Program-made: the position numbers and the translations under genes
Notes under the pieces: generated by a model
Told to the model about the DNA's origin: nothing
The model's database searches: none
Seen by the model: only the letters and a program-made list of their open reading frames with translations
From: a virus
Taxonomy: Duplodnaviria; Caudoviricetes
Virus record (IMG/VR): IMGVR_UViG_3300028833_000066
Length of the DNA stretch: 64,000 nt
Direction: 5' to 3' (one strand)
In this document: positions 642-33,794 of the stretch, piece by piece
Layout of the letters: each line of letters begins with the position of its first letter
How positions within the stretch are numbered: position 1 is the stretch's first letter

Positions 642-710
642 AAAAAATACTTTCCCATTATATTATAAAATAAATTTAATTATTTGTCAATAATTAAATA
701 AATGGAAAAA

Positions 711-815
711 TTTTCCAGCTTCTCCACCTTTGCATCCCAGCTCCTCCACGTTGGTAAAATTTTCCAGCTCCACCCAGCTCCCATAAGCCCAGCTCCCAGC
801 TTCTGACCCAGCTCC
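711..815 (+). repeat. CCAGCT/TTCCAG short-repeat cluster at the left border of the early block
   Basis: About 8 copies of CCAGCT within about 100 bp. Confidence 0.85.
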
Positions 816-954
816 TGCGGGCTGGCTCCGCCTGGAAAATTTTTATAAATTTGTAAAAATTTGGCTGCCGGCAAATATTTGACTTGTGTCAAACACTTGA
901 CAAAAATAGTTAGTTAGTCATAACTAACTCCTAAAAAATTTTTTTATTTGGGGC

Positions 955-983
955 TTGACAACTTGACACGAATGTGATATAAT
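955..983 (+). promoter_or_regulatory. Consensus sigma-A promoter with no downstream gene
   Basis: TTGACA(955)-17 bp-TATAAT(978). It points into a convergent terminator and minus-strand genes. Confidence 0.75.
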
Positions 984-1076
984 GGTAGAGGTGGGAGAGT
1001 ATCTGGCGGCGCCGGCAGAATTTTGTGCCGGCATGATTTTTATGTCGGCAAAGAAAAAAAGGGTAGTTTCCTACCC

Positions 1077-1316
1077 TTATTCGCGATAGTCATCATAGAT
1101 TTCAATACTGTAAGGAATAGCCACAACTTCATGTGCGTCTACATCATGAGCACAACATCCTTGAGTAATTTCAATGTCTTCATTGAAAGCAAAGTTTCTT
1201 CCAATAATCAAGGGATGCTTTTGCTTGTGCATAAAATTTACCAATTCTTCAACGGTAGAGAAATTCTTTATTCCCATGTAGTAATCAGAAGAGGTGCGAG
1301 TGAGAACAAATTTCAT
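1077..1316 (-). CDS. Hypothetical early protein
   Basis: Own TTGACA/TATAAT promoter (about 1390), GAAAGGA RBS, terminator right after the stop. Confidence 0.8.
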   Translation of the reverse strand: MKFVLTRTSSDYYMGIKNFSTVEELVNFMHKQKHPLIIGRNFAFNEDIEITQGCCAHDVDAHEVVAIPYSIEIYDDYRE

Positions 1317-1478
1317 AATGAATCCTTTCTGGTTTTAAGGACTGTCCTTGTCCTCTTTCATCTTTTATTATATTCATTTTATTTTATTTGTCAATACCTT
1401 TTTGAAAAAATTTTATGCCGGCACGAAAAAAGGGTAGTTTCCTACCCTTATGGTTCAACTTCAATATCATAGGCACTA

Positions 1479-1733
1479 TTAACAAATCTCTTTTTCATTT
1501 TTATACCATTTGTTTGTATCTGCGTAAGAAGGAAGTTTGTCAATATGGGTTATACGATTACAGGCGAGAGGAGGACATTCCATCATTTCATGAGCACGCC
1601 ATTCTGTGATTCGTGTGCCTTGAATGATAGGAGTATCATTTTTGAAATAGATAGTACCTACGCCTGTAACGGTTACGCGAACATAAGAGGGATGTTTTTC
1701 GTAGGCTTCAATTTGCTTGCGGATTTTATTCAT
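1479..1733 (-). CDS. Hypothetical early protein
   Basis: Promoter at about 1805, AAAGGAG RBS. Confidence 0.7.
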   Translation of the reverse strand: MNKIRKQIEAYEKHPSYVRVTVTGVGTIYFKNDTPIIQGTRITEWRAHEMMECPPLACNRITHIDKLPSYADTNKWYKNEKEIC

Positions 1734-1857
1734 ATGATTGCTCCTTTCGGTTTGTGAGGTTTCCTTCCTCTTTCATCTTCTATTATACTCACTTTATTTT
1801 ATTTGTCAATACCTTTTTTGAAATTTTTGCCGGCGTAAAAAGGGCAGTTTTCTACCC

Positions 1858-2010
1858 TTACAGAATCACCATTTCACCATTCTGGTCTTTAACGCACTGG
1901 ATAAAGGCACCCGCCATGATGAGTTCATTCTGACGCTTGCGTGCTTCTTCAATGGTTGCGGCACGAGCAAAGTCCATGCGGTTATTGAGAATATAATAGA
2001 TTGTGTACAT
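1858..2010 (-). CDS. Small hypothetical protein (50 aa, MYTIYYILNNRMDF...)
   Basis: AAAGGAGA RBS; stop abuts the GGGTAG-CTGCCC terminator. Below the ORF-track size cutoff. Confidence 0.7.
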   Translation of the reverse strand: MYTIYYILNNRMDFARAATIEEARKRQNELIMAGAFIQCVKDQNGEMVIL

Positions 2011-2037
2011 TTTTTATTTCTCCTTTCTAACAACTGA

Positions 2038-2247
2038 TTAGAAACCTAAGATAAATGAAAGTTTTAAGGGAAAAGAAGTATTACAATCTGGACACTTGAT
2101 ATAATAATCAATATGATTGCGTGTATCTTTTTTCCAATGAATTTGCGGATCATCTGCGGTAAATTCAAAGACACACCCACACGCACATTTGATTGTGCAA
2201 ATTTTGACAAGATTATTTTGTTTTTTACCATGCTGAAGGATTTTCAT
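2038..2247 (-). CDS. Zn-ribbon protein
   Basis: CACGC...CPDC; AAAGGAGA RBS. Confidence 0.75.
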   Translation of the reverse strand: MKILQHGKKQNNLVKICTIKCACGCVFEFTADDPQIHWKKDTRNHIDYYIKCPDCNTSFPLKLSFILGF

Positions 2248-2270
2248 TTTATTTCTCCTTTCTGATTAGG

Positions 2271-2489
2271 TTAATCGCCAACGATTGCTTCTGTCAAATC
2301 CATCCAATCATCATAACGTTCAAGAATCTTAACGTCTGTGGGTTCAAATACGCCTCCGCAACAACCACAAATTACGTTCGTGATAGTTTCACCATCGCCA
2401 CCAATGATAGCAATGCCACCGAAGATGTTGGTTTCACCTTCATTGATGAAGTCAGGATTGATGACTTCAAATTTTACTTGCTGATACAT
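2271..2489 (-). CDS. Small acidic Cys-containing protein
   Basis: ICGCCGGVFE; RBS and promoter (about 2563). Confidence 0.75.
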   Translation of the reverse strand: MYQQVKFEVINPDFINEGETNIFGGIAIIGGDGETITNVICGCCGGVFEPTDVKILERYDDWMDLTEAIVGD

Positions 2490-2622
2490 ATGTACATTCC
2501 TTTCTGGTTTAGAGTTTTCCTTCTCTTGATTACAATTAGATTATACCATAAATTTTAAGAATGTCAAGTGTTTTTTTGAAAAATGTGCCGGCCAAAGAGT
2601 TAGATAAATCTAACTCTTTTTA

Positions 2623-2904
2623 TTATAGCAATGCGGCAATAGCATTATCTACCGCTTCTTTATATCTTTCACCCAGACGAGCCGCTACAGCCTTGATAAG
2701 TTTGAGCGAAGTTGCGGGGTCGCTGAGAAAAGTTTCAATGGCATAGTCATCGCTATAATATACATGAAGATCTTCATGAAGATTACGCAAGAATTTACTG
2801 TCCCACGGGTTATAAATATCATTCTGTTCAAGCAAGTTCTCAACAATAGTGTCAATGTCGTCAGGCGTGATGGTCAGGGTGACAGTCTTGGTGATATTTT
2901 CCAT
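2623..2904 (-). CDS. Hypothetical early protein
   Basis: Promoter at about 2978, GAAAGGA RBS. Confidence 0.75.
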   Translation of the reverse strand: MENITKTVTLTITPDDIDTIVENLLEQNDIYNPWDSKFLRNLHEDLHVYYSDDYAIETFLSDPATSLKLIKAVAARLGERYKEAVDNAIAALL

Positions 2905-3077
2905 TGTTTTGTCCTTTCTGGTGTTAAGGATTTTCCTTTCCTTTTTACAAGTAAATTATACCACAGATTAGAAAAAAGTCAAGAGTTTTTTGAGTTAGCG
3001 GCAACTAAATTTTATGCCGGCCAAGTTAGTCATAACTAACTTGCGGCAAAAAGAAAAGAGGGCCGAAGCCCTCTGCC

Positions 3078-3413
3078 TCACGCGAGGCGGTAGGTGTTGG
3101 GCTTGCCCTCAATCTTGACGATGCGATCAGCCCAGTTGTGGGTCAGACCGTACTGGATCTTACCCTTGGTGAAACCCTCAGGCAGATTAGCCTCAACCTG
3201 CTCGAAGATCTCCGCCACGGTCAGCGGGGCAGTCGTGAGGGCGAAGACACCGCGGACGATGTCCCACGCGGTCTCATAGCCCGCGTCCTTCTCGGCCTTG
3301 GCGACTGCACCCTTATTCAGTTCGGCTTCGAGTTCGGTCTTGATTTCGTCAATATTGGTCACGGTCTCACCATTGAGGAAGGAAACGAGAGACTTGATGG
3401 TGGCAATACGCAT
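3078..3413 (-). CDS. Winged-helix-like protein, family A (copy 1 of 4)
   Basis: LTVAEIFE...FTKGKIQYGLTHNW...KIEGKPNTYR, shared with 7520, 10609 and 12895. Confidence 0.75.
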   Translation of the reverse strand: MRIATIKSLVSFLNGETVTNIDEIKTELEAELNKGAVAKAEKDAGYETAWDIVRGVFALTTAPLTVAEIFEQVEANLPEGFTKGKIQYGLTHNWADRIVKIEGKPNTYRLA

Positions 3414-3631
3414 AGTAGATACCCTTTCTGGTTTTTGAGACTGTCCTTGTCTTTTCATTTATATTCTACCACATTTCGTGGAGAATGTCAAGCATTTTTT
3501 AGGAAGTTGCGGAAGGTTTAACAGTCCCAATTACGCATTACCGCCCAACTAATGCCACCGCTTACATCCTTATTATAGCACAGGATTTGCTGTTTGTCAA
3601 GGGCTTTTTGAAGATTTTTTGTTTCAAGGTT

Positions 3632-3692
3632 TGCTACTTGTGGGCTCGAACTACTCTTACGCCATTTCCAATTACCAACCGAAGGAGTAGCA
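3632..3692 (-). ncRNA. Degenerate tRNA-like element in a non-coding transcript
   Basis: Acceptor-like TGCTACT/AGTAGCA stem and GTAG-TTCGAGC-CCAC T-arm, downstream of a promoter at about 3804. Confidence 0.4.
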
Positions 3693-3883
3693 GAGAGAGG
3701 AGAACCAAGTTGAACGGTATTGTAGGTTTGACTGGGCGTCACCATCACCAGATGGAGCACTCTCTCCCTTGGAACAATTATATTATATCATAATTTGCCA
3801 GAAAGTCAATTACAAAAGTGTTAAGATTTTATTACAATTATATTAACAGGCCGGCTCAGTTAGATACAACTAACATAAGAGCA

Positions 3884-3991
3884 AAGAGAAGGGGAGGAAT
3901 CGAACCTCCCTTGGTTTACCACAACCTACGGCGAATCGAACGCCCTACGACACCTTTCGGGTATCTGCTGTTACCAGTGAGCCACTTCTCT
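3884..3991 (-). ncRNA. tRNA-like RNA (GAA anticodon-like loop) with an extra T-loop and D-loop-like hairpin pair
   Basis: AGAGAAG/CTTCTCT acceptor, U8, GCT-CACTGGTAAC-AGC D-arm, GATAC-CCGAAAG-GTGTC arm, extra GGCG-TTCGATT-CGCC and GGTT-GTGGTA-AACC hairpins, GGGAGG-TTCGATT-CCTCCC T-arm. No encoded CCA. Confidence 0.65.
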
Positions 3992-4238
3992 TTTAATTGT
4001 GAAGAATTTTGGCTGTCCCTCGGGTGCCTTGTATCATTCTTCACAGTTCCGTATAGGGACTTGCAAGTGAGGTTGTCTGTGAGGATGCCTTACCCCGAAT
4101 GACTTATCAGGGGCCTCGTTCCGTTTTCCTCTCCCCTTGGAACAATTACATTATACCGCAATTTTGAGAATTGTCAAGTGGTTTTGAAAAAAAAGATTGC
4201 TAAGTTTTTAACAACCCGTGACCGGCAAAAAAGTTAGA

Positions 4239-4454
4239 TTACTCTAACTCTTCTTCTTCCTCTTTATAATATTTTTGATTGTCCTCAAAGCACTCTTTTG
4301 CGAAAAAGCAAATACCATGATGGTTGAGATAACAATGGGCACAATGATGATTATTTTGGATACATTTAGCAAGGTATTCATTTAATACTTTTATTGTTAA
4401 TTCCTCTTTATATATGGCTTCGATTTGTCGCTGTAACTGTTTTTCATTCATCAT
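4239..4454 (-). CDS. Cys/His-rich small protein
   Basis: CIQNNHHCAHCYLNHHGIC; overlaps the upstream gene. The track's longer start is a shadow extension. Confidence 0.65.
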   Translation of the reverse strand: MMNEKQLQRQIEAIYKEELTIKVLNEYLAKCIQNNHHCAHCYLNHHGICFFAKECFEDNQKYYKEEEEELE

Positions 4455-4728
4455 CACTATTATCCTCCATCGTATCTTCATATCCGTATACATCGCCTGC
4501 CCACCGAATTTCATCTTCTGCAAAATCCGTAGGGGCATCGGGGTCAACATCATCTGCGGCGAGCCAATCTTCCCAACTCTCCCAGAATGCACCCCAGTCA
4601 TCGCAATCTTCCATCGGGTCATCAATGTGACAAATACCCATCTGGTCGCAGTAGGGGCAATCGCCATAGGCATTCACGGGGCAGTAGGTATAGTCGCCAT
4701 TGTAGGTTCCCTTTTTCACATCACGCAT
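4444..4728 (-). CDS. Highly acidic Cys-rich protein (DNA-mimic candidate)
   Basis: CPVNAYGDCPYC motif followed by a D/E- and W-rich tail; GGAGG RBS. Confidence 0.75.
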   Translation of the reverse strand: MRDVKKGTYNGDYTYCPVNAYGDCPYCDQMGICHIDDPMEDCDDWGAFWESWEDWLAADDVDPDAPTDFAEDEIRWAGDVYGYEDTMEDNSDDE

Positions 4729-4903
4729 TTTTCTTTTCCTCCATTTTCATTTTATGATTTCTCCAAATTTTAGCATAGAAGACTACTTTTTCAGGATATT
4801 GTATTTTTGAAAAACCTTCACAAACCTGATAGAAAGTATCAACATAGATAGCATGGCAATGCTTACAGAGAAACTTGATGATCGTATTTATAATGGTGGT
4901 CAT
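4721..4903 (-). CDS. Hypothetical protein
   Basis: AAGGAGG RBS; translationally coupled to its neighbours. Confidence 0.6.
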   Translation of the reverse strand: MTTIINTIIKFLCKHCHAIYVDTFYQVCEGFSKIQYPEKVVFYAKIWRNHKMKMEEKKNA

Positions 4904-5094
4904 TGTTCTTCCTCCTTTACGCTCTCATTATAGCATTGTTTATACCATTTGTCAAGAGTTTTTCTTGCGGTTTTACGAAGTTTTTTCTTTAAGCGACGAC
5001 GTGCGGGAGTGCTTTGATCTATCCATTGACGACACCCTGTATTCAAATCCCAAGCTGCAAGTTCATCATGATATTTATGCTCGTTCTTACGCAT
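4900..5094 (-). CDS. Small basic protein
   Basis: RRRLKKKLRK; AAGGAGG RBS; carries an internal promoter at about 4930-4955. Confidence 0.65.
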   Translation of the reverse strand: MRKNEHKYHDELAAWDLNTGCRQWIDQSTPARRRLKKKLRKTARKTLDKWYKQCYNESVKEEEQ

Positions 5095-5168
5095 TTATTA
5101 TCCCTCCTTACATGCCTATTATAGCATACATAGGAAAGTTAGTCAAGCCTAATTTTTTCGCCGGCACC

Positions 5169-5444
5169 TTAACGGCTATAATTAAGGATGTCACGACCTT
5201 CCTTAAAGTCATAGATAGAAATCATAGTGCAGTCTTTGTCATATAGATAGATAGCGGCGGCTTGAAGTAAAGCAATAATATCGTCACCGCATTCACTCTT
5301 ACCGTTCTGGCCGTATACCGTAATCATTTGATACCGATGCTTCTTATCACGAAGCTGCTGACGCAAAGAATCATTTTCAAGACGTAACTGGTCAAGTTCC
5401 TCTTCCAATTCGCTAATACGCAGGCTCATTTCAAATTCATCCAT
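5169..5444 (-). CDS. Hypothetical protein with N-terminal coiled coil
   Basis: Promoter at about 5504, AAGGAGG RBS. Confidence 0.75.
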   Translation of the reverse strand: MDEFEMSLRISELEEELDQLRLENDSLRQQLRDKKHRYQMITVYGQNGKSECGDDIIALLQAAAIYLYDKDCTMISIYDFKEGRDILNYSR

Positions 5445-5542
5445 CGTGATTCCTCCTTAGTTATTTCTTCTTACAGTTTGATTATATCATAAAGTAGACA
5501 GTTAGTCAAGACTAATTTTCTTGCCGGCGGCAAATGGGAACA

Positions 5543-5746
5543 TTAGTTCCCATTCGCACGACTGACAGAAAGGTCTACCAGTTCATAAGAACGCTCAATA
5601 TCAAACCGACAGCCGCATTTATCACAACGACATGACCACCACTGTGCGGCACCATCCAGTCCGCTAAAATCATCACCGTAATCTTCAATGGTATAATCTT
5701 CCGAACCACACACGGGGCAAGCCTCTTTGTCAAAATTTTTACGCAT
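5543..5746 (-). CDS. Zn-ribbon protein
   Basis: CPVCG...CRCDKCGC. Likely start MRKNF overlaps the end of the upstream gene. Confidence 0.75.
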   Translation of the reverse strand: MRKNFDKEACPVCGSEDYTIEDYGDDFSGLDGAAQWWSCRCDKCGCRFDIERSYELVDLSVSRANGN

Positions 5747-6131
5747 TTTCCTGTGCCTCCTTTTCCTTTTCCTTGGCTTCACGCTTAGCCTTGTCGCGGG
5801 CGATCTTCTCTTCCTTTGCCTTGACCTTTTCGGCTTTCTCAGCCTGCTTGGTGTTGTAAGCATTGATTTCGTTCTGCATCAGTTCGCGGGCAGTCATGTC
5901 TTCGCGTTCCTCTGCTACGATGACGCCTACGCGGCAATAGCGTTCGACGCCATTTTTATCGGTCAGAATGCAACCCCACTGTCTATCATTGATTCTGCGA
6001 TACTCTGCATTATCTGTCCAAAAGGCATTGGGTTTAACACCATTAACAGAAGCAGAGTCCAGGTCAAAAATTTCAGTGAAGATACGGTCACGGAGGTCAG
6101 CATCAACAACAGTCTTCGCAATCTTCGCCAT
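5739..6131 (-). CDS. Family B protein with K/E/A-rich tail (paralogue of 12245)
   Basis: KT...LR...F start and EKAEK.K..EEK tail are shared with 12245. Confidence 0.75.
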   Translation of the reverse strand: MAKIAKTVVDADLRDRIFTEIFDLDSASVNGVKPNAFWTDNAEYRRINDRQWGCILTDKNGVERYCRVGVIVAEEREDMTARELMQNEINAYNTKQAEKAEKVKAKEEKIARDKAKREAKEKEKEAQENA

Positions 6132-6435
6132 AGAGATTCTCCTTTCGGTTTGTAGGGTGTCCTTCCCTTGATTACAGTTAGATTATATCACACATTTTGA
6201 TTATTGTCAAGAGATTTTTCAGAAGTTTCTGAAAATTTTTGTGTCCTCTCCGCATAAGCCAACCCTCTGGGGTGCTTATGCACGTGCGTTTCTTTACCGC
6301 CCCACCGAAGATTTCTTCGGGATGGTCGTCACATCCTCTTGACATTATTGATTATACCTGATGCCAAGACTTTTGTCAAGTAGTTTGTGCGATTTTCTTT
6401 TGTTAAGTTTTTCACAAGCGGGGCCGGCATAATAG

Positions 6436-6888
6436 TTAGTTATGACTAAACAACTGTGCTTCAAAGTCACGGGCAAGTTTGCGGTGTTCATAGGTGGCAA
6501 GCCAATTAATAGCCCATTCAGTGGCTATATATTCAGAAGGAATGTCAAAGTATACACTGAAAGCCGCGTCACGCTTAATCTCGTCATCCTCAATCCAATC
6601 AATTTCTTTGCGGGTTGCCCAATGTCCTAACTCGTGGAGGATAGCAAGAGTAATGTCAGAGAAATTATTTGCGAGAGGACAACGATTGACAAAATCTTCA
6701 CGAAATGCAACGTCCTCTTCTTCGGGTATGTAATTAATAACAGAGGGCACAAGCAAACGCGGGTTTGGCTTGTTATTAATATCCATTCCCCAATTATTGC
6801 TCATTCGCTTGCGTGCGATTGTTACGCGGTCGCCAATGGCCTTGCTTGCAAACTCGCGGATTAATTGAATCTGCATCATCTTTATCAC
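6436..6888 (-). CDS. Zincin-type metallopeptidase-like protein
   Basis: ILHELGH (HExxH) motif with a downstream Glu. Confidence 0.65.
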   Translation of the reverse strand: MIKMMQIQLIREFASKAIGDRVTIARKRMSNNWGMDINNKPNPRLLVPSVINYIPEEEDVAFREDFVNRCPLANNFSDITLAILHELGHWATRKEIDWIEDDEIKRDAAFSVYFDIPSEYIATEWAINWLATYEHRKLARDFEAQLFSHN

Positions 6889-6953
6889 TCCTTACACCCG
6901 TATTATATCACGCACAATAGAGTTAGTCAAGTATAACTTTGCCGGCGGCTGTC

Positions 6954-7205
6954 TCAACCCGCATAGAGTTGAGACAGAAAGTAGAGGTTGAGGACAATGC
7001 TGGAAAAATGAAGCAAGAAGTCATTTACATGGCGGTTCTGGTTAGTAAAGTCCTTAAAGATACCAATAAGAGCAATGCCAAGGCCGAACCAAGCAGAGCC
7101 GAAACCGCAAGTGATGATGAGAACAACATTGAGAACCATGCCCGCAGCACGCAAGTCCTGCCATTCAAGTTTATAAGGGGCATAAAGATTAAAGAACTTA
7201 CGCAT
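6954..7205 (-). CDS. Small membrane protein
   Basis: Hydrophobic segments; own promoter at about 7260. Confidence 0.7.
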   Translation of the reverse strand: MRKFFNLYAPYKLEWQDLRAAGMVLNVVLIITCGFGSAWFGLGIALIGIFKDFTNQNRHVNDFLLHFSSIVLNLYFLSQLYAG

Positions 7206-7519
7206 CTGGATTTCCCCTTCCCTTTTGTTCATCTATATTATATACTAATTTTTGATTTTTGTCAAGAGTCAATTTTGAAGTCCGCCACTCAATCGGGGCT
7301 ACCCGCTCATCCTCTTGCAGTGGGGTTCTCTTCCTCTTGACATCTTGATTATAGCATATAATGTGAGGTTAGTCAAGCCTAATTTTTATGCCGGCGACAG
7401 TTAGTTATGACTAAATAACTATTATGATAAAAAAAGAAAACCACCCCGAAGGGTGGCAAGGATGGGTTATTTCTCACCAATTACGCGACGCCAGAGATAG
7501 TGGCAACCTTGCGGGAGGC

Positions 7520-7852
7520 TTACGCCTTCCGATAGGCGTTGACCTTACCCTCAACCTTGACGACCTCGCCCGCCCACTGGTGGGTCAGAGCGTAGGACAG
7601 CTTGGACTTGGTGAAGTCCTCGGGAACCTCACCCTCGATGGCTTCCCACAGTTCAGCCACAGTCAGCGGAGCCTCAGTCAGCCCAAACTGAGCGAACACG
7701 ATGGGCTTAGCGGCTTCGTAGATTGCGGCCTTAGCAACCTTTACCGCATCGCCGCGATGAATTTCGCGGTTCAGTTCGTCCATAACCTCGGCGTTGTCGT
7801 AGTTGTAGTTGGTCAGAGCAGTGTAGATGGCATTCAGAGTAGCATTCTTCAT
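7520..7852 (-). CDS. Winged-helix-like protein, family A (copy 2)
   Basis: PLTVAELWE...FTKSKLSYALTHQW...VEGKVNAYR. Confidence 0.8.
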   Translation of the reverse strand: MKNATLNAIYTALTNYNYDNAEVMDELNREIHRGDAVKVAKAAIYEAAKPIVFAQFGLTEAPLTVAELWEAIEGEVPEDFTKSKLSYALTHQWAGEVVKVEGKVNAYRKA

Positions 7853-8197
7853 AGGGCAATTTCCTTTCTGGTTTTTAAGTGTTTTCCTTCACTTGATGTC
7901 TTTATTATATCATGGATTTGGGAGTTTGTCAAGGGGTTTCGCAAACTTTTTTCGCCCATTATGTTTGCTGGTGGCCAAATGTTTCTGTTTCCATGCGTTT
8001 TGTCTCTGTTGACTTTCGGCAACCACCTTGACTTGTCAGTGTGACTCCCTCACCTGACAATATTAATTATACTCTAATTTTGATTTTTGTCAAGCATTTT
8101 TTGAAAATTTCTTTGATAAATTTTTGACAATTGATGGTTATGTAGTCATAACTAACCGCCGCGCCGGCACGAAAAAAGGGTAATTAGATACCCTTCT

Positions 8198-8338
8198 TTA
8201 CAGAATCCTACACCAGAAAGCCGCGAGAAGAAGCCCCAAAAAGTAGTGAAGAATTATAGGTTTATCATCTTTGCGGCAAGCATTAGCGGTATATACTATC
8301 CAGACAAGAGTAAGCACGATGGCAATTGCAATTTTCAT
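8198..8338 (-). CDS. Small two-TM membrane protein (MKIAIAIVLTLVW...)
   Basis: ATGA overlap with the upstream gene; AGGAG RBS. Confidence 0.6.
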   Translation of the reverse strand: MKIAIAIVLTLVWIVYTANACRKDDKPIILHYFLGLLLAAFWCRIL

Positions 8339-8769: not shown

Positions 8770-8834
8770 TTCTGACACCTTCCTTTCTTGGTGTAATTAT
8801 ATTATACTCTATTTTTAGATTTTGTCAAGGGGTT

Positions 8835-11359: not shown

Positions 11360-11450
11360 TGCCTCCTTCTTGGTACATTTTGATTATATCATAGTCAAAG
11401 CATTTTGTCAAGAGGAAATTTTCGGCTGGCCAAAAAGGATGCGTAATTTT

Positions 11451-12104
11451 TTACGCATCCCAGTTGAGACAAGTGGCATAAATGCGGGCTTCAATTTCAG
11501 TATCGCCAACGCCAGTATGCTCCTCCTCAAAATCAGTATTTTGAGTAAGGAATCTCCAAATTGCTTCCGCTGTTGCTCGCGGTCTCGGGATGGCGTGGTT
11601 GGTCATCAAACCATTTTCTTTACAAAAGGTTATATATTCATCAGTTTTACAAATGGTATTTCGTGCCAGTTTCATGGTATCAATTACAGGCATATTGTAC
11701 GGGATGAAATAACGTTTTTTGCTTTTAGTTTGATAACGCATAGTAGCATTGAGTACTCGAATATCGAAAGACGCATTGTGAGCGATGATAGCTTCAACAT
11801 GCCACTTGTCGCACAAGTCTCGGAAAATCTTATACATTCCCCAACTATCCGTGACTGTATATTTTTTGTCCCAAATGTCCCGCCAATACTGCGGAATCTT
11901 ATCCGCAAAATAAGCATCTTTCATCGTCTCGGGCATAGAGATGAAAACATCACGATTGATCACGGGCACAACTTCAAGGGTCTTGCCCTCGTCATTAATG
12001 ACGCGGAAGCAAGCGTCATAAACCTGCCCATCATCTGAAAATAGTTTACCATTAATTTTATAAGTGTTTGCGGTTTCAGTGTCCACGACCATTTTATTGC
12101 CCAT
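11451..12104 (-). CDS. DEDDh 3'-5' exonuclease
   Basis: VDTET, AHNASFD and HTGVGD motifs; shares MRYQTKSK.RYF with 9060. Confidence 0.9.
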   Translation of the reverse strand: MGNKMVVDTETANTYKINGKLFSDDGQVYDACFRVINDEGKTLEVVPVINRDVFISMPETMKDAYFADKIPQYWRDIWDKKYTVTDSWGMYKIFRDLCDKWHVEAIIAHNASFDIRVLNATMRYQTKSKKRYFIPYNMPVIDTMKLARNTICKTDEYITFCKENGLMTNHAIPRPRATAEAIWRFLTQNTDFEEEHTGVGDTEIEARIYATCLNWDA

Positions 12105-12244
12105 TTTAGAAAGCCTTTCTGGTTTGGGAGGTGTCCTTCCTCTTTTCAATGATGATTGTATCATATTTGTGCGAGTTTGTCAAGCCTAACTTTTTGGCCG
12201 GCGAGGTTAGTTATGACTAACTATTATATATAAAAAAATGGGGA

Positions 12245-12619
12245 TTACTCCCCATCCTTTTCGGCCTTCTTCGCGGCCTTTTCGGCACGCCGCTTGGCGT
12301 CAGCCGCGATCTTCGCGGCTTTCTTTTCCTCGGCGACCTTGTGCTTCTCGGCCTTTTCGGCACATTCGCGAGCGTAGCCATCCGCGGCGGCGTAGCCATC
12401 GTAGGCATTGTAGCCACCTTTACCGTTTCGAGTACCGCGAGGAGTAGAAACTTTTACCACAATCCACGCATCATCGCCCTCAGCGTCAACGCAAGGCAGG
12501 GCAATTTCATTGGAACTCACGCGGAGGACTTCTTCATCAGACAGAAGCCCGATGAACTTGTCAAGGAAGGAAGCACGGAGAGCGGATTCGATAGCAGTCT
12601 TAGTCATAGCCATAAGCAT
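12245..12619 (-). CDS. Family B protein with K/A-rich tail
   Basis: Similar to 5739; GAAAGGA RBS. Confidence 0.75.
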   Translation of the reverse strand: MLMAMTKTAIESALRASFLDKFIGLLSDEEVLRVSSNEIALPCVDAEGDDAWIVVKVSTPRGTRNGKGGYNAYDGYAAADGYARECAEKAEKHKVAEEKKAAKIAADAKRRAEKAAKKAEKDGE

Positions 12620-12781
12620 TTCCTTTCTGGTTTTTAAGAGTTTCCTTCTCTTATGTCTTGATTATACTACAGAGTGGAGGTTTTGTCAAGAGGAATTTTT
12701 TATCATCGTGAGGAGGTGTCCCTCATCCTCTTGACAATTATTATTATACTCAAAATTTGATTTTTGTCAAGTATTTTTTTC

Positions 12782-12818
12782 TATGAATATTTATAAATTT
12801 TTTGTATAATTATGCACT
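12782..12818. promoter_or_regulatory. Tandem ARG-box-like site
   Basis: TGAATATTTATAAA and TGTATAATTATGCA match TGNAT-W4-ATNCA with 1 and 0 mismatches. Confidence 0.5.
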
Positions 12819-12894
12819 GCCGGCACGAAAGTTAGTAATGACTAAATAACTATTGTATGCGTCAAAAGAAAAAAGACCCCGAAGGGTCTTTTAC

Positions 12895-13227
12895 TCACCG
12901 CAGGCGATACACATTACCGCCCTTGGTCTGCTCAACGCTCACAGCATCGTTCCAGTAGTGCAGGAGAGCATACTGTACCTTACCCTTGGTCATGCCATTG
13001 GGCAGAGTATCGCCACAGCTCTCCATCAGCTCCGACAGCGTAGCTCCATCAGTAGCCAGCTTCAGCTGTCCAAGCACCAGCTCGCGGGCCGATTCATACA
13101 GCTCCCGATTCGCAGCAGCCTTCTCGGCATTGCGATTCAGCTCCCGCATCAGCTCCGCACGGGCATCCGCCATCTCAGGCACGTTCTCAAGGAAGGAAAC
13201 AAGGGACTGCATAGTGGTCTTCTTCAT
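12895..13227 (-). CDS. Winged-helix-like protein, family A (copy 4)
   Basis: ATLSELME...MTKGKVQYALLHYW...NVYR. Confidence 0.8.
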   Translation of the reverse strand: MKKTTMQSLVSFLENVPEMADARAELMRELNRNAEKAAANRELYESARELVLGQLKLATDGATLSELMESCGDTLPNGMTKGKVQYALLHYWNDAVSVEQTKGGNVYRLR

Positions 13228-13620
13228 AGTGATATCCTTTCTGGTTTTTAGGACTTTTCCTTGTCCTCTTTACATCTTGATTATACCACAGTTTTGAGGT
13301 CTTGTCAAGTGTTTTTTGAAACTTTTTTTTCGTTTGCGGCAAGATTTCCGTGGCCTTTGGAATCTTGGGAGAGCAGTCCATCTTGCCGCATTCTTTCGGG
13401 TGGTGCCCCTCTGTCCTCCCGACACTTTATATTATACTCGGATTTAGGTTTCTGTCAAGTGTTTTTCGCAAAAAGTTTTGTAAAGTTTTTAACAATGTTG
13501 TTAGTTAGTTATAGCTAACTCGGCCGCCGGCAAAAGAGTTAGTTTCAGCTAACTCTCGTAATTATGCCGGCAGAAAAGTTAGTCGCAGCTAACTTTGCCG
13601 ATAAAAAAACTGACAGCGGC

Positions 13621-14070
13621 TTACGCCACCGCCAGCCCCGCCAGCGTCTTTTCGTTGGTCAGTTCAGCTCCGTCAAACTTGATTTGGAGCTCCCGCCCGT
13701 TCAGGCTCAGGTCTCCGGCCACCCAGAAGGGAACGCTATCCTTGACCCAGTGCTGACCAGCCAGCTCGGTGATGATCCGCTCAAAGTTCTCGCCCTTGTT
13801 GTGGTGGGTGTCAGCTTCCAGATCCTCGGCCTTGCCGATGATCTTGGCCAGCCCCTTGGCAATCAGGGCCAGCTTGTCAGCTTTCGCGACGCGGATGCGA
13901 ATCTTGGCCATGCCGCCCCGCTTGCTGGAAGCGTGGTCCAGCTTCAGCACGGCGTCAGGCAGCTCGGGCAGCTCGGCGGCGAACAGTTCGCCGTGGTGGA
14001 CAAAGCCGAGGACATAAGCATCAGCGGCAGAATGGGCTTCGTAGGTGTTCAGCATCTCTTCGCGGGTCAT
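13621..14070 (-). CDS. PD-(D/E)xK nuclease-like protein (paralogue of 18257)
   Basis: NKGENFE...PFWVAGD...QIKF pattern. Confidence 0.6.
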   Translation of the reverse strand: MTREEMLNTYEAHSAADAYVLGFVHHGELFAAELPELPDAVLKLDHASSKRGGMAKIRIRVAKADKLALIAKGLAKIIGKAEDLEADTHHNKGENFERIITELAGQHWVKDSVPFWVAGDLSLNGRELQIKFDGAELTNEKTLAGLAVA

Positions 14071-14154
14071 CGTGGTGGCCTCCCTTGCTTTCATCTTACA
14101 AGTAGATTATACAGTGCCGGACCGATTTTGTCAAGAGGTTTTTTGAAAAAAGTT

Positions 14155-14400
14155 ATTACATTTCTGTTAAGATTTTATAGACTTTTCGTAATACTTTTGT
14201 AATAGTTTCGTGCTTTAACGTGTTAAAGCGGAGATACCTCGGCAGGTGAGGTATCCCACGGTGGAGGTACTTCGGCAGGTGAGGTATTGCCGGCAAAGTA
14301 GTTAGTGACAACTAATCTGGTTAGTCATAACTAACTCTTATAATACTTATTTAGTCATAACTAACTCCGCGAAAATAGTTAGTTAGTTATAACTAACTTA
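14155..14400. promoter_or_regulatory. Operator cluster at the divergence point of the early block
   Basis: TGTAAT-type 11-bp repeats, CTTTAA-N4-TTAAAG (14211), two TACCTC-GGCAGGT-GAGGTA-type units, GCCGGC, and four AGTTAG-N6-CTAACT. Confidence 0.75.
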
Positions 14401-14595
14401 AAAAATCGCACCCTCGCCGTGGGTCCGACCGGTTCTCCGCTCCTCTGGTTATAGTATAGCACACTATGGAAAAATGTCAAGAGGTTTTCAAAAATTTTTT
14501 GAAAAAATTTTGCCGGCAAGATTTTGAAAAAAGTGCTTGACAAGTCCGGACAAGTATGTTATAATCAAGATGTAAAGAGAAGCAAGGAGGAAGAA

Positions 14596-14760
14596 ATGAT
14601 GAAGAGTTTCGAGGTTGAAATTAGCTGGGTAGAGGCTCATGGTTTCCGTTATGTGGTGAAGGATGGCAAGCTGTATTGGCAGACCGCGATTCAGACCGCG
14701 GAGATGGACGAGGATGGTCATATTGTATGGCATGAAAAAGAATATTTTAATCTTCTGTAA
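14596..14760 (+). CDS. Small hypothetical protein
   Basis: Promoter at 14537, AAGGAGG RBS. Confidence 0.7.
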   Translation: MMKSFEVEISWVEAHGFRYVVKDGKLYWQTAIQTAEMDEDGHIVWHEKEYFNLL

Positions 14761-14832
14761 AACCTCTTGACAAAACATTGACCGTCTGTTATAATCAAGA
14801 TGTACCAAAGAGATAGAAAGGAAGTAGGAACA

Positions 14833-15048
14833 ATGTACAAAACTACTTGGATTATCAGTGATGAAAGTGACGAGGGTATCTATCAGACAGAATTGACCTT
14901 GTATCATTTCGGAAAAACTCCCAAATTTCCCAGTTGGTACATGGAAGAAAATCACTCTTACGTGATTGAAATGGTTTGGAATTTCAAATTGATTGTTCGT
15001 CCTTCAATCTTCTTTAAGTGCCTGACCCATCAATACATTATCAAGTAA
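14833..15048 (+). CDS. Hypothetical protein
   Basis: Promoter at 14767, RBS. Confidence 0.65.
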   Translation: MYKTTWIISDESDEGIYQTELTLYHFGKTPKFPSWYMEENHSYVIEMVWNFKLIVRPSIFFKCLTHQYIIK

Positions 15049-15124
15049 AAAAGTACTTGACAAATCCGGCAACCTGTGCTATACTTAGATCGTACCAAGG
15101 GAAGAACAAAAGGAGGATCACAAA

Positions 15125-15433
15125 ATGATCACCATGCGTCATCTGCTGACCCTGAAAGAAAACGACGGCATGACCCTGAAAAACGGCGAGATGATCACTT
15201 ATAAAAGCGGCTGGCAAGTAGCCACCGAAGGCGTGGAATGTGTAAGTCCGAAGGATGCCATGCGTGCGATTAAGCAGTATAACGGCACTTGCGGCGTGTG
15301 GTACGCTGGCGGTATCTACTACATTGACAAAAGCCACCGCGTGAGCACGAAACGTGAGGCCATGGAGATCGGCCGCAAGTGCAAGCAGATTTCCGTCCTG
15401 CGCTGGCATGATATGGGACTTGTCTACTGCTGA
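15125..15433 (+). CDS. Hypothetical protein
   Basis: Promoter at 15057, AAGGAGG RBS. Confidence 0.8.
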   Translation: MITMRHLLTLKENDGMTLKNGEMITYKSGWQVATEGVECVSPKDAMRAIKQYNGTCGVWYAGGIYYIDKSHRVSTKREAMEIGRKCKQISVLRWHDMGLVYC

Positions 15434-15551
15434 GCAGTAGGCCGGAAAAATTTCTTTGAAAAAGTTTTGAAAAAGTGCTTGACAAATAATCGGGAATATG
15501 TTAATATATAGTCACCGGGAGGGACCCCGGAAGATAAAGGAGGAAACGAAA

Positions 15552-15719
15552 ATGACTCACATCAACAACCTGCCCCACACCTTCCGCGCTTGGATTGTCG
15601 CCCGTGAGGTTGATGGCGAGCTGTGGTTCTGGGGGTCTTGGGACTCCCGCGAGGCCGCGCAGGCCGCGGCGTGGGATATCGGCGGCGTGGTCGTGTCCCG
15701 CGACTGGGTGGAGGCCTGA
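15552..15719 (+). CDS. Family C small protein (paralogue of 16095)
   Basis: WIVAREVDGELWFWGSWD. Confidence 0.75.
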   Translation: MTHINNLPHTFRAWIVAREVDGELWFWGSWDSREAAQAAAWDIGGVVVSRDWVEA

Positions 15720-15914
15720 GCCTCCACCCCGGCACCGGATCCACCGGCGCCGTTTTTTATGCCGGCACAAAAGTTAGTTATGACTAACTGATTCGGATCG
15801 GCGGTTAGTTATAACTAACCGGAGTATGTTGCCCTGGCGCTCGGCTGAAAAAAGTTTTTAAAAAACTTTCAAAAACCTCTTGACAAACCCGCGAAAGTGT
15901 GGTAAGATTAAGAT

Positions 15915-16022
15915 GTACCAAGGGAAGAGAGAAGAAGAAAACAACCTCTCCCAAGCGCATAACTTGGTGAAGTAAAATCAAAACTCTCTACCAAACAGAC
16001 GAAACTTTCTTCCCTTGGTACA
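15915..16022 (+). ncRNA. Closed-stem small RNA candidate
   Basis: After promoter 15880; 5' TGTACCAAGGGAAGA pairs with 3' TCTTCCCTTGGTACA; no credible ORF. Confidence 0.55.
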
Positions 16023-16094
16023 CAAAAACCTCTTGACAAACCGGCCGCAATGCGCTATAATAAGACTGTAAAGAGAAGCAAGGAGGAAACACAA

Positions 16095-16271
16095 ATGCTG
16101 AACACCGAAGAAATCCGCAACGTCCCGACCTACGCCTACGGCCATCCCTATTGGGTGGTGCGCGAGGCGGACGGCGAGTACTGGTTCTATGGCGCGTATG
16201 ACACGCTCGCCCGCGCTCGCGAGGTGGCCGCGATGGTGGACGGCCTCCCCGTGGAGAACCCCGCGGCCTGA
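16095..16271 (+). CDS. Family C small protein
   Basis: YWVVREADGEYWFYGAYD. Confidence 0.75.
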   Translation: MLNTEEIRNVPTYAYGHPYWVVREADGEYWFYGAYDTLARAREVAAMVDGLPVENPAA

Positions 16272-16529
16272 CCCGCCGCGGGTCTTTTTTTGCCCGGATC
16301 GCCGGCATGAAAAAAGTTTGGAAAAATTGCAAAAAGGGCTTGACAGACTTGACATATCATGCTATAATAAGGATGGTGGAGGAGGGCCCAACTATATAAG
16401 TTAGTCATAACTAACTAAATTGCCGGCGAAAAAGTTTGCGGAAAATGAAAAAACCTCTTGACAATTCCGGCAAGATATGCTAATATATAGTCACAGGGAG
16501 GAACCCTGGAAGATAAGGAGGAACGCAAG

Positions 16530-16691
16530 ATGCTGACTGAAAATTCTGGAAAGTACGAAATCCTTGGTTATCTCGTGGAAAATGGCTTTGACCTCGGTGA
16601 CATGACAATGGATGAATGGGCTACGGCCTACACCATGGAGGAACTGTGGGGCATCGTCCAGTATATGCTCGGGCAGGTGGAGGACTGGTAA
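16530..16691 (+). CDS. Small acidic protein (MLTENSGKYEILG...)
   Basis: Promoter at 16458, AAGGAGG RBS. Confidence 0.7.
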   Translation: MLTENSGKYEILGYLVENGFDLGDMTMDEWATAYTMEELWGIVQYMLGQVEDW

Positions 16692-16773
16692 GTCCTTCGC
16701 AATCTCGAAAAAAAGTACTTGACAAAATACACCTTATCCTGTATAATTAAGATGTAGAAAGGAAGTGCTCACA

Positions 16774-17202
16774 ATGACGATCTGGTTCGACATGGATGGC
16801 ACAATCGCTGACCTGTATGGTGTGAACAACTGGCTTGACTATCTGCTTGCCCACGATGCTACACCTTACAAGGTTGCAAAGCCTCTTGTCAATATGAACG
16901 TGCTTGCTCGCAAGCTGAACGCTTTACGTAAGCAAGGTTACAAGGTTGGTATCATCTCTTGGCTGAGCAAAAACAGCACTGCCGAATATGACAACGCCGT
17001 GACCTTGGCAAAGCGTGCTTGGCTGGCTGAGCACTTGGCAAGCGTGGCCTTTGATGAGATCCGCATCGTCTCCTATGGTGTGAATAAATGGCAAGCCTGC
17101 GGTGAAGGAATCTTATTCGACGATGAAGAGAAAAACCGCAAGGATTGGAAAAACGACGCCTTTGAACCTTGCCACATTATGGAAGTCTTGAAGAGCCTGT
17201 GA
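16774..17202 (+). CDS. HAD-family phosphatase (nucleotidase-like)
   Basis: FDMDGTIAD and ILFDD; paralogue of 8335. Confidence 0.85.
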   Translation: MTIWFDMDGTIADLYGVNNWLDYLLAHDATPYKVAKPLVNMNVLARKLNALRKQGYKVGIISWLSKNSTAEYDNAVTLAKRAWLAEHLASVAFDEIRIVSYGVNKWQACGEGILFDDEEKNRKDWKNDAFEPCHIMEVLKSL

Positions 17203-17282
17203 CAAGGTTCTTTTTTTATAATAGTACGGTTAGTCATAACTAACTCGCTTGCCGGCATTAAAAAAGAGTAACCACTACATGG

Positions 17283-17432
17283 TTACTCTTTTGCCTTGTC
17301 ATTGGCAAGGGCAAGGGCAAACGCCTGCATGATGAAGCCGATCACAACACCTATAAGCCACCAATCACACCGAGACAGATAGCACATAAGCCCGCAAATA
17401 GTGCTGAGGAAGACGCCGAGATAGCCCATCAT
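17283..17432 (-). CDS. Small two-TM membrane protein, the only inverted cassette in the right arm
   Basis: MMGYLGVFLSTICG...; own TTGACT/TATAAT promoter (about 17465-17492) and terminator. Confidence 0.65.
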   Translation of the reverse strand: MMGYLGVFLSTICGLMCYLSRCDWWLIGVVIGFIMQAFALALANDKAKE

Positions 17433-17791
17433 TTTAGCCCCTTCTTTCCTTTGGTTTCACCTATATTATATCAGAAATTTTGTAAAAGTCAAGTAATAAT
17501 TTTGTAATAGGTGGAGGATTCTGCTCCGAAAAGTCTACCGGCAAATAATAAGAAAAAAGGGCTTGACAAAATCGCCGGCATAATGTATAATAAAGATGCA
17601 CCGGAACGGAGAGACAGGGGAGAGTGAAGACATGAGTTAGTTATAACTAATTACCTTTTCGGCACTGGTGGAGGCTCAAAAAAAATTTTTGAAAAATGAA
17701 AAAGTGCTTGACAAGTCCGGCATTGTGTGCTATACTTTAATCACGGTGGAGGGAGACCGAAGCCGAATAGAAAGAAAAGGGGACTTCAAAA

Positions 17792-18010
17792 ATGACTATC
17801 CGCGAATACTTCGACACTATCTATGCCACCGAGGATTTTGAGGACGCCGCCGACTATGAGCGGACTATCTACCACTGCATGGAAGAGGACTTCGACGACT
17901 TCACTATGTGGGCAGTGGAAAACGGCATTGACCTGACCGCCACCACTGAAATCATGGGCGAAACCGTGCCCGTGTTGCTCGCGTGGGCGTGGGATATGTG
18001 CGAAGAGTGA
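17792..18010 (+). CDS. Very acidic small protein (DNA-mimic candidate)
   Basis: D/E- and aromatic-rich; promoter at 17708. Confidence 0.75.
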   Translation: MTIREYFDTIYATEDFEDAADYERTIYHCMEEDFDDFTMWAVENGIDLTATTEIMGETVPVLLAWAWDMCEE

Positions 18011-18256
18011 AAACCCTTCGCCTTTTCTTTTTTTGTAAAAAGTGCTTGACAAGTCTGCCGGTCTGTGCTATACTATCATCAGAGGAAGGGAAAACGCTTC
18101 GGACCAACGGCGGACCTGCCCATTTTTATTTTTGACTATCTTTGATCTTTGTGGACTATGGGCAAAAACTTTTTTCGTAAAAATGCAAAAAAGGGCTTGA
18201 CAAGTTTACCGGCAAGGTGTATAATCAGGGTGAAGATAAGGAAAGGGGACATCACC

Positions 18257-18709
18257 ATGATGAACACTCTGCTGACCGCCTACAACAAGCTGACTGCCGC
18301 CACCATCTACTTTATCGGCTTCGTCCTCTCCGGCACCGTCTACGGTGGCTATTTCACCGAAATTCCCACCGCCGCCCTGAAACTTGACCACGAAAGCACC
18401 GCCCGCGGCGGCGCGGCGAAAATCCGCATTCGCTTTAATAAGGACTTAAAGCTTGCCCTCAAGGCACAAGGCAAAGTCAAAGCCCTTGCCACCATCGAAG
18501 CACTTGCCGCCGACCCCCGTTATAACAAAGGCGACAACTTTGAGAAGCTGATTGCTGAACTGAACGGCATTCAGTGGGCGAAAAACTCTGACCCCTTTTG
18601 GGTCGCTGGAGACCTTGAAATCAACGGCGAACAGGTACAAGTCAAGTTTGACGGTGCGGAACTGGTGAATGAAAAATCCCTCCGCAAAGCCCTGACGGTT
18701 GCCGCCTGA
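18257..18709 (+). CDS. PD-(D/E)xK nuclease-like protein
   Basis: NKGDNFE...PFWVAGD...QVKF; paralogue of 13621. Confidence 0.6.
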   Translation: MMNTLLTAYNKLTAATIYFIGFVLSGTVYGGYFTEIPTAALKLDHESTARGGAAKIRIRFNKDLKLALKAQGKVKALATIEALAADPRYNKGDNFEKLIAELNGIQWAKNSDPFWVAGDLEINGEQVQVKFDGAELVNEKSLRKALTVAA

Positions 18710-18739
18710 GTGGCAACCTTCTTTTTTTATTTTTTCATA

Positions 18740-19385
18740 ATAGTTACTTAGTTATCACTAACTCGCTCGACTTTAATGCTTTAATGCAATGAAGTGGAGG
18801 AAAACTATTCGCGTCAATTTACACGCTTTAATGCGTTAAAGAGTTGTTAAATTTTTAACAATCGCCCCACCCTCATGTTTTCTTCAATACTTTAATGCAT
18901 TAAAGTGGGTCTGCGGCAGAATACTTATTTAGTTATAACTAACTCGCTCGATGCTATATTGTTAAATTTTTAACAAGCGGCCCACCTTTATGGTTTAGCA
19001 CTTTAATGTGTTAAAGTGGAGGCACCTGTAACACTTTTGTAACAAATTAAAATCCTGCTTAGTCGGCCGGTATCGTTATAAATCCATAATATTTGAAAGG
19101 TGGAGGGTGGTTCTTGTTCGCGTTTTATTTTTCAAAATAAGCATACCCCCGCCCGCGGAAAAGGATTTATAATTGTTACACCCCACAGTGAAATTTTGTA
19201 ACATTTTTGTAACAAATTCGGACCTACCCTAGCTTCCAGGTGCTAGCTTCCAGCATTTTCCAGACCCCGGGGGCTAGCTTTCGGGATTTTTTGAAAAGTT
19301 AGTCTAGACTAACTAGGGGCGTGCCCAAATTCCACCAACTTTTTTAAAAAATAACTTAAACCACCAACTTTTAAAAATAACCTTC
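18740..19385. promoter_or_regulatory. Gene-free operator and repeat cluster at the right border of the early block
   Basis: Four CTTTAA-N4-TTAAAG-type sites, two TTGTTAA-N4-TTAACAA, two TGTAAC-N5-TGTAAC, three AGTTAG-N6-CTAACT, TAGCTTCCAG repeats and a CCACCAACTTTT repeat. Confidence 0.85.
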
Positions 19386-33770: not shown

Positions 33771-33794
33771 GGCGATAAAGGAGAGGTGAAATAT

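Follow-up and report, generated by a model that had tools for sequence, protein, structure and literature searches.

Phages rewire their hosts by means of proteins and small RNAs, and a few of them read one host regulator through a few sites, as is the case for Spo0A in phi29, LexA in GIL01, and DtxR at tox. The subject of this analysis is the early block (700–19400) of a 64,000-nucleotide stretch of the Caudoviricetes virus record IMGVR_UViG_3300028833_000066, this whole stretch being referred to as the window; the intergenic DNA of the block carries tens of predicted operators of three host regulators (DtxR/MntR, HisR, and Rex), each assignment being supported by independent evidence. The capture or sensing of host metal, histidine, and redox regulators by a phage at this scale has not previously been described.

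Single operators for host metal repressors are found in temperate phages; the tox promoter of corynephage beta has a DtxR operator and Fur controls stx1. In both cases, as here, the operator of a host metal repressor is phage-borne, and DtxR is the family suggested for the main motif of the block, but a single operator serves one toxin (moron) gene, in contrast to a genome-scale set in the early region. The lowering of the free pool of a DNA-binding protein by high-affinity sites is exemplified by the Fur titration assay (FURTA) and by the DnaA-box cluster datA of E. coli; like the present sites, those of FURTA and datA are clustered without a regulated gene, and it is expression or initiation elsewhere that changes in the two systems, but FURTA is a laboratory artefact of cloned operators, while the datA locus belongs to the chromosome and its target is the initiator of the cell itself. 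In the open literature searched, no description was found of a natural sponge made of phage DNA for host transcription factors. The PeSL (promoter early stem-loop) cassettes of T4-type phages and the host-takeover module of SPO1 contain many small early genes that are individually equipped with a strong host-type promoter and a terminator; they share with this block a hyperplastic early region in which repeated spacers likely drive shuffling, although to our knowledge their spacers are not operators of host regulators.

In the Bacillus phages phi29 and Nf, early promoters are repressed through Spo0A boxes and phage development is tied to host physiology (PMC2731898). Here too a lytic phage genome holds several sites for a host-encoded regulator; however, phi29 involves a single regulator whose few sites are all located at promoters or origins, whereas the present system comprises at least three regulator classes and about 40 predicted sites, many of them far from promoters, and in relatives up to about 29 boxes form tandem arrays devoid of genes. 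Sites of the same sequence and symmetry belong to the bacterial DtxR/MntR, HisR, and Rex regulons (PMC9413887, PMC9600882), where 1–16 sites per genome lie at feoA, ZIP, his, and redox promoters; the phage sites differ in being unlinked to pathway genes, far denser per kilobase, and partly arranged in tandem arrays. The early DNA of this large phage of gut or rumen type probably captures or senses host sensors, and the favoured explanation, a sequestration of host repressors combined with the gating of a few early promoters, is given a probability of roughly 0.45.

Operator-type motifs and their candidate binders

The palindrome AGTTAG-N6-CTAACT has, at up to one mismatch, 30 matches in the window, corresponding to 28 distinct sites that all lie between 908 and 19314 (32 matches at up to two mismatches), against 0.18 expected by chance, and none of 100 shuffled controls reached 30. 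Many copies consist of the half-sites AGTTAGTYA and TRACTAACT and are perfect two-fold symmetric 18-bp palindromes, in keeping with DtxR/MntR operators, which are symmetric in this way over about 18–19 bp. GCCGGC is present in 33 copies in the window, 30 of which are in the block (4.7 expected). A first-pass annotation, made from the sequence alone, had reported about 30 copies of each, in agreement with these counts, and had described the block as an array of unrelated multi-copy motifs; the enrichment in the block, which was its main claim, is confirmed, while some of its motif counts and its promoter-poor picture are not. Its statement that the longer motifs are absent from the rest of the window is nearly exact, since the only match outside the block is one HisR-like sequence with one mismatch at 33097.

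The exact 18-mer AGTTAGTYATRACTAACT is found in at least 120 bacterial contigs, with one site per contig; the counts that follow refer to the matches listed. About three quarters of the titles are Bacillota, the taxa including Lachnospiraceae, Oscillospiraceae, Erysipelotrichaceae, Anaeroplasma, and Clostridium; 113 of 121 sites are intergenic, a TATAAT-like -10 lies within 22 nt at 75 of the 121, and 56 of 120 loci have at least one of FeoA, DtxR, ZIP, DUF3793, and DUF2325 within 8 kb. The flanking genes encode FeoA, ZIP, two-domain DtxR-family repressors (PF01325+PF02742), DUF3793, DUF2325, and ABC exporters. Because these genes cluster into FeoA, ZIP, and DtxR-family repressors, the bacterial context of AGTTAG-N6-CTAACT reads as the signature of a DtxR/MntR-family metal regulon, the same sequence standing at promoters of metal-homeostasis and DtxR-family genes, and the resemblance to DtxR/MntR operators proposed for the phage motif is upheld. 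This bacterial regulon (loci L117–L236) appears undescribed in the open literature searched. In five Bacillota genomes of host type, 2–16 AGTTAG-type sites per genome are present at up to one mismatch, in comparison to about 30 in the phage block; in four of the five the count about equals that of the control pattern. The first idea, a single phage-encoded KorB-like global repressor, was downgraded because the palindrome is found at bacterial feoA, ZIP, and DtxR promoters.

The Firmicutes HisR consensus is cacTTTAnnnnnnTAAAgtg, with histidine as co-repressor (PMC9413887, a study for which HisR of R. gnavus was purified). This 20-bp sequence is fully matched at 18888–18907 and 18999–19018, and its core CTTTAA-N4-TTAAAG also at 14213 and 18826; the four core copies (14213, 18826, 18890, and 19001) and a degenerate one near 18766 account for about five loci, as had been annotated for YACTTTA-N6-TAAAGTR, though only two strict matches of the latter are present in the block. 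The core is found in 29 of 301 Clostridia genomes, versus about 11 for the control, and sits upstream of tRNA-synt_His (HisZ-type), SBP_bac_3 (histidine-transporter binding protein), and Trp_repressor-family genes, in line with the proposed HisR resemblance.

The clostridial Rex consensus is TTGTTAANNNNTTAACAA, i.e., TTGTTAA-N4-TTAACAA (PMC9600882), to which the motif annotated as Rex-like is identical. Five matches at up to one mismatch, against 0.08 expected, are found where seven had been claimed, so that the enrichment stands and the count does not: two are perfect (18844 and 18959) and three have one mismatch, namely 4197–4214, whose centre is about 29 bp upstream of a -35 hexamer, and its sister copies 6400–6417 and 13478–13495; a sixth (11170–11187) appears only at two mismatches. 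The Rex assignment is supported by this match to the literature consensus.

The two remaining resemblances fared less well. TGTWAH-N5-TGTWAH, the consensus used in the literature for WalR/VicR, occurs as exact direct repeats at 19027 and 19197 only (0.14 expected), with a one-mismatch copy at 14187, where five loci had been listed; the WalR-like reading is weak, given the few loci, though these are conserved in relatives. The supposed tandem TGNAT-W4-ATNCA is a single imperfect locus at 12803 (TGTATAATTATGCA) with no tandem partner, no tandem 18-bp pair with a TGAAT-W4-ATTCA core is found in the window, and the ArgR reading is unsupported.

Host proteins are the most economical and likely binders of these sites, because homologues of DtxR, of the TrpR family, and of Rex are absent from four complete relatives: PF01325, PF01371, and PF06971 gave nothing above the Pfam cut-off in their six-frame translations. 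This absence and the independent evidence for three motifs agree with the earlier proposal of operator-type sites for several different host regulators. It is conceivable, if improbable, that the binders are instead phage-encoded (family A, family D, or a virion protein), the operator likeness being due to mimicry, competition for sites, or shared ancestry of specificity. Family A comprises four paralogous minus-strand genes of about 110 amino acids (3078–3413, 7520–7852, 10609–10947, and 12895–13227) with a helical N-terminal part and a confidently predicted C-terminal winged-helix domain (predicted local distance difference test score 88; Z 8–9.7 over 60–75 residues to winged-helix domains), and its products are candidate phage DNA binders, not DtxR homologues. 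Family D, of about 150 amino acids (13621–14070, minus strand; paralogue 18257–18709, plus strand), is found only in relatives carrying AGTTAG and GCCGGC sites, just as an enrichment of GCCGGC is confined to relatives with AGTTAG sites; moreover, the palindrome differs between sister lineages, as expected if a protein co-evolves with its site. On the other hand, one phage protein family is unlikely to account for three unrelated motif classes that are each identical to the consensus of another host regulator, family A is also encoded in two relatives without these motifs (G003 and G004), the homologues just mentioned are lacking in complete relatives, and comparing the profiles of families A and D to that of DtxR gave probabilities below 1%. 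A fold search with family D (Foldseek PDB, VIA wide) returned no meaningful match, the best Z being 2.4, and no PDB sequence match was found.

The search of about 30 early proteins against Pfam and PHROGs gave only NT5C-like, exonuclease-like, and unknown families, with no classical helix-turn-helix repressor; two NT5C-like and two DEDDh-exonuclease-like proteins are among the paralogue families of the block. The NT5C-like 5'-nucleotidase paralogues (8335–8769, minus strand, and 16774–17202, plus strand) are kept in all AGTTAG-type relatives, and no copy was seen in the portions of L003 and L004 that were retrieved; the pair may bear on nucleotide-pool or DNA-modification biology. Two loci of relatives (L237:1297–1653 and L238:1288–1653, both minus strand) encode proteins of about 120 amino acids with a winged-helix domain and a Lys/Ala-rich histone-like tail, and similar tails end the early proteins 12245–12613 and 5739–6131 of the window. 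The L237 type was rejected as a DtxR homologue, its PF01325 score being sub-threshold only, and is absent from the window and from the fetched early blocks.

Promoter cassettes and the placement of sites

The block is read with the standard code, holds small genes only, and has a guanine-plus-cytosine (GC) content of 41–49% versus about 32% elsewhere in the window. The promoter scan (TTGACA-N16-18-TATAAT, up to one mismatch) found 46 promoters in the first 19.4 kb versus 5 in the remaining 44.6 kb; with about 46–50 near-consensus host-type promoters in two divergent arms, the block is the most promoter-dense DNA in the window, the opposite of what the first-pass annotation had described. The aligned promoters share an A/T-rich upstream tract, a TGn extended -10, and a short leader with a Shine-Dalgarno site, and each cassette continues with a small gene, or an RNA without an open reading frame (ORF), and then a GC-rich terminator; because of these shared features the block constitutes a series of early units, each monocistronic, that run in opposite directions from about 14300. 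The left arm (690–14480, minus strand) has about 34 near-consensus sigma-70/SigA-type promoters with small standard-code genes or ORF-less RNAs, according to the promoter scan and to gene calls with Shine-Dalgarno sites; the right arm (14537–18709, plus strand) has about 12–15 cassettes of the same kind, the last of which is the family D gene at 18257–18709. A consensus promoter (19405–19434, plus strand) precedes the first TAG-recoded gene, encoding a sigma-factor-like protein (19452–20792, plus strand), whose frame needs TAG to be read as glutamine.

In the left arm, palindromes of the AGTTAGTYATRACTAACT family (range 908–13594) lie in the spacers, starting at 908/912, 2598, 2993, 3024, 3858, 4232, 6434, 7399, 10533, 12205, 12830, 13503, 13537, and 13577, usually in the order previous terminator, palindrome, GCCGGC, next promoter. 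In the right arm (range 15772–17652) they start at 15772, 15803, 16399, 17228, and 17635, the boxes at 16399 and 17635 being 30–40 nt downstream of ORF-less promoters. The 30 block copies of GCCGGC (867–17579), often in the form TGCCGGCA, are located 2–8 bp on the promoter side of a DtxR-type box or 25–45 bp upstream of a -35. Most AGTTAG sites are 30–130 bp upstream of a promoter, between the previous terminator and GCCGGC, and do not overlap core promoter elements; one is just upstream of a -35. A minority, 5–6 of about 32 DtxR-type boxes, is centred on a -35 hexamer (AGTTAGgcTTGACTAACT) and thus overlaps the promoter: the box at 5137–5154 (minus strand) has the -35 hexamer TTGACT of P5146 inside its centre, and the same design recurs at 5500–5517, 6921–6938, 7367–7384, 9016–9033, and 12174–12191, with the site centre +0.5 bp from the first base of the hexamer. 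None of the HisR, Rex, or WalR-like boxes is centred on a -35 hexamer, and the HisR, perfect Rex, and WalR-like boxes are 90–650 bp from the nearest promoter.

The remaining sites are gathered in two hubs. Hub 1 (14140–14400), at the divergence point of the arms, contains the WalR-like repeat at 14187, a HisR box at 14213–14228, GCCGGC at 14289, and a stack of five DtxR-type boxes (14300, 14319, 14349, and 14377/14381). Hub 2 (18710–19404), which separates the last early gene from the sigma-gene promoter, is a gene-free and promoter-free stretch of 700 bp with three DtxR-type boxes (18746, 18927, and 19297), HisR boxes at 18826, 18890, and 19001 with the degenerate copy near 18766, the perfect Rex boxes at 18844 and 18959, and the WalR-like direct repeats at 19027 and 19197. 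Many predicted strong sites with no gene to regulate in cis, the arrangement of a titration locus, are thus found in both hubs, as well as in the arrays of relatives. The earlier description of sites stacked with no promoter or gene nearby is true of the hubs (about 14140–14400 and 18710–19404) but not of most AGTTAG sites, which are within about 130 bp of a promoter.

Two explanations make the identity of the regulators unimportant or dispense with DNA binding. According to the first, which appears highly improbable, the sites are structural, acting as roadblocks or insulators between strong tandem promoters, or as recombination boundaries at which cassettes are shuffled in the manner of PeSL in T4-type phages. 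The typical position between a terminator and the next promoter, within a longer conserved spacer (ATAATAGTT with palindrome and GCCGGC), would suit such a role, and the richness in paralogues suggests cassette duplication; equality with the operators of three specific host regulators and the existence of gene-free arrays would both be left unexplained. According to the second, scarcely credible, they are RNA elements: early transcripts would have at their 3' ends hairpins formed by the palindromes, which would serve for termination or processing. A few sites (2598 and 4232) do have an A-tract before and a T-run after them, directly past a stop codon; however, the stems are AT-rich, and most palindromes fall outside the transcripts because they follow a separate GC-rich terminator with its own T-run, some overlap -35 hexamers, and the bacterial copies of this sequence are DNA sites close to promoters.

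Other features of the block were observed alongside. Its left edge (700–830) has short related repeats, namely CCAGCT in seven copies and TTTTCCAG, and its right edge (19225–19290) has repeats of the GCTAGCTTCCAG type; both could be boundary or recombination sequences. The direct repeat CCACCAACTTTT is present twice at 19336–19375, 30–70 bp upstream of the -35 hexamer of the sigma-gene promoter. GTGGAGG occurs in 15 copies, all in the block (743–19100), 13 of them on the plus strand regardless of the direction of transcription and often directly after a -10 hexamer or a palindrome. Short ORF-less units under consensus promoters, probably small RNAs, are found at 15880–16030, 18046–18160, 12770–12690, 11150–11060, 13458–13310, 16340–16400, and 17563–17650; in the unit at 15907–16020, GTACCAAGGGAAG shows long-range pairing with CTTCCCTTGGTAC. 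The ORF-less transcript from P4177 (3870–4150, minus strand) has a tRNA-like 3' element with two T-loop-like hairpins (GTTCGATTC), on which neither ARAGORN nor Rfam made a call; ARAGORN and Rfam, in gathering and E-value modes, found nothing in the block, and its megablast comparison with GenBank phages gave no match.

Beyond the block, the reading of TAG as glutamine opens long frames from 19452 to the window end, and the standard code, which leaves few long frames, was rejected for the window as a whole. Late and structural genes, as well as the sigma-like gene itself, need this reading (19452–64000); the frames also encode a terminase, a portal, a 4955-amino-acid protein (ORF 33786–48653, with 152 in-frame TAG codons), and an anaerobic ribonucleotide reductase. 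A GIY-YIG homing-endonuclease-like ORF (58296–59291, minus strand) lies among DNA-metabolism genes near the NrdD gene (60150–62072). No suppressor tRNA was found within the 64-kb window.

Conservation and array expansion in related phages

Eight related IMG/VR loci were retrieved with the sigma-like protein as query. In relatives with sigma-protein identities of 98%, 83%, and about 51%, the AGTTAG palindrome and GCCGGC are found again, as are the dense promoters and the elevated GC content; the motif set of hub 2 is at the same place, before the sigma-like gene, in L001, L002, L005, and L006, the WalR-like repeats are conserved in L001, L002, and L005, and the DtxR-type variant with the embedded -35 in G001, G002, and G006. 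About 65 viral contigs, among them many of 130–182 kb, contain the exact 18-mer, in 88 stretches altogether, and in complete relatives all exact sites fall in one block of 17–22 kb (18 in G007, 22 in G008, and 12 in G009; 0 for the control pattern). Conservation in related phages, which the first-pass annotation had proposed as a check, is therefore found, together with confinement to one block. Its suggestion that the block is first-entering or leader DNA receives no support, the block being internal (about 53–157 kb) in the records of complete relatives, whose physical ends are not established.

In some relatives the sites are expanded into arrays: in G008, about 29 DtxR-type boxes are packed into two stretches free of promoters within 1.6 kb and are accompanied by two Rex boxes, and in G002 a segment of 450 bp holds nine HisR boxes, to which Rex, DtxR-type, and WalR-like sites are added. 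There are no promoters or genes inside these arrays.

The sister lineage represented by G003 (complete, 181 kb) is without all these motifs and carries instead 37 copies of ATTTAGGTGT-N1-3-ACACCTAAAT (L025/L026, G003:53000–73000), of which 27 are centred 18.5–19 bp upstream of a -35 hexamer. The outer half-sites of this palindrome resemble the classical DtxR box; as TTAGGT-N6/7-ACCTAA they are not enriched among 151 Clostridia genomes (present in 14 genomes versus about 65 for the control) and gave no host counterpart there, though the host may lie elsewhere.

Such geometry bears on the main alternative, tentative and somewhat unlikely, in which host DtxR-family, HisR, Rex, and WalR proteins would report metal, amino-acid, redox, and growth state to the phage and switch early promoters and the upstream region of the sigma gene, depletion of the regulators not being the point. 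The 5–6 DtxR-type boxes centred on a -35, a design conserved in relatives, would fit a switch of this kind, as would the location of hub 2 directly upstream of the sigma-like gene in the window and in four relatives and the fixed promoter-proximal position of 27 of the 37 palindromes of G003; a precedent exists in phi29 and Nf, whose Spo0A sites repress early promoters and replication (PMC2731898). In contrast, most sites overlap no core promoter, the distance of 90–650 bp that separates the HisR, perfect Rex, and WalR-like boxes from the nearest promoter is unfavourable, and promoter-free and gene-free arrays of 9–29 boxes far exceed the needs of a switch; furthermore, a constant geometry can arise by duplication of whole cassettes rather than by selection.

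Proposed sequestration of host repressors and its significance

Sequestration combined with gating, the explanation favoured here, would operate as follows. The standard-code early region, made of two divergent arms and about 50 TTGACA-17-TATAAT cassettes, would carry in its spacers and two hubs consensus operators of metabolite-sensing host regulators, namely about 30 of DtxR/MntR type, about 5 of HisR, 2 perfect and 3–4 near-perfect of Rex, and 2 WalR-like. DtxR-family repressors, HisR, and Rex bind DNA in the replete state, that is when metal-loaded, histidine-loaded, or in conditions rich in oxidized nicotinamide adenine dinucleotide (NAD+), respectively. One phage genome would add a number of high-affinity sites equal to or above that of the host regulon, and replication would multiply them, with the result that repressors would be drawn off the host operators; metal uptake (feoAB, ZIP), histidine synthesis and uptake, and redox genes would be derepressed. 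As a second effect, the 5–6 promoters with a -35 inside a DtxR-type box would be tied to the metal status of the host. Actual binding, titration, and downstream derepression are predictions drawn from the sequences. Sequestration is favoured because promoter repression does not fit the placement of most sites, among them every HisR, perfect Rex, and WalR-like box, and because the arrays of relatives are promoter-free.

Several points weigh against this explanation. The 5–6 DtxR-type boxes that cover a -35 are in the classic position of a repressor site, and the location of the sites in the early block is not required by a sponge. A single infecting genome adds few sites with respect to cellular repressor numbers, and for this reason titration would occur only after replication. 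Moreover, the four winged-helix paralogues and the lineage-restricted family D could bind some of the sites, and GCCGGC, which does not adjoin the bacterial AGTTAG operators, is without a host counterpart. Finally, since 27 of the 37 palindromes of G003 are at a fixed position upstream of a -35, their geometry looks like promoter regulation rather than a sponge, and this palindrome was not found as a host operator in 151 Clostridia genomes.

Tentatively, and at something short of an even chance, these TAG-recoded Bacillota phages of about 170–180 kb may use their own DNA as an effector: expandable operator arrays would soak up DtxR/MntR-type, HisR, and Rex repressors during replication and thereby shift the host into a nutrient-acquisition mode without any phage protein, while a few early promoters would be gated. 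The analysis brings to light a whole lineage with tens of predicted sites for at least three metabolite-sensing host regulators, partly in gene-free tandem arrays. If the sites act as decoys, they would represent a host-takeover mechanism at the level of DNA, invisible to annotation pipelines because no gene is involved; if they act as sensors, a lytic phage would integrate metal, amino-acid, and redox status before its recoded late programme. In either case, the sites are directly testable by gel shifts and FURTA-like plasmid assays, and they indicate the clade of the host, namely Bacillota that possess this DtxR-type operator.

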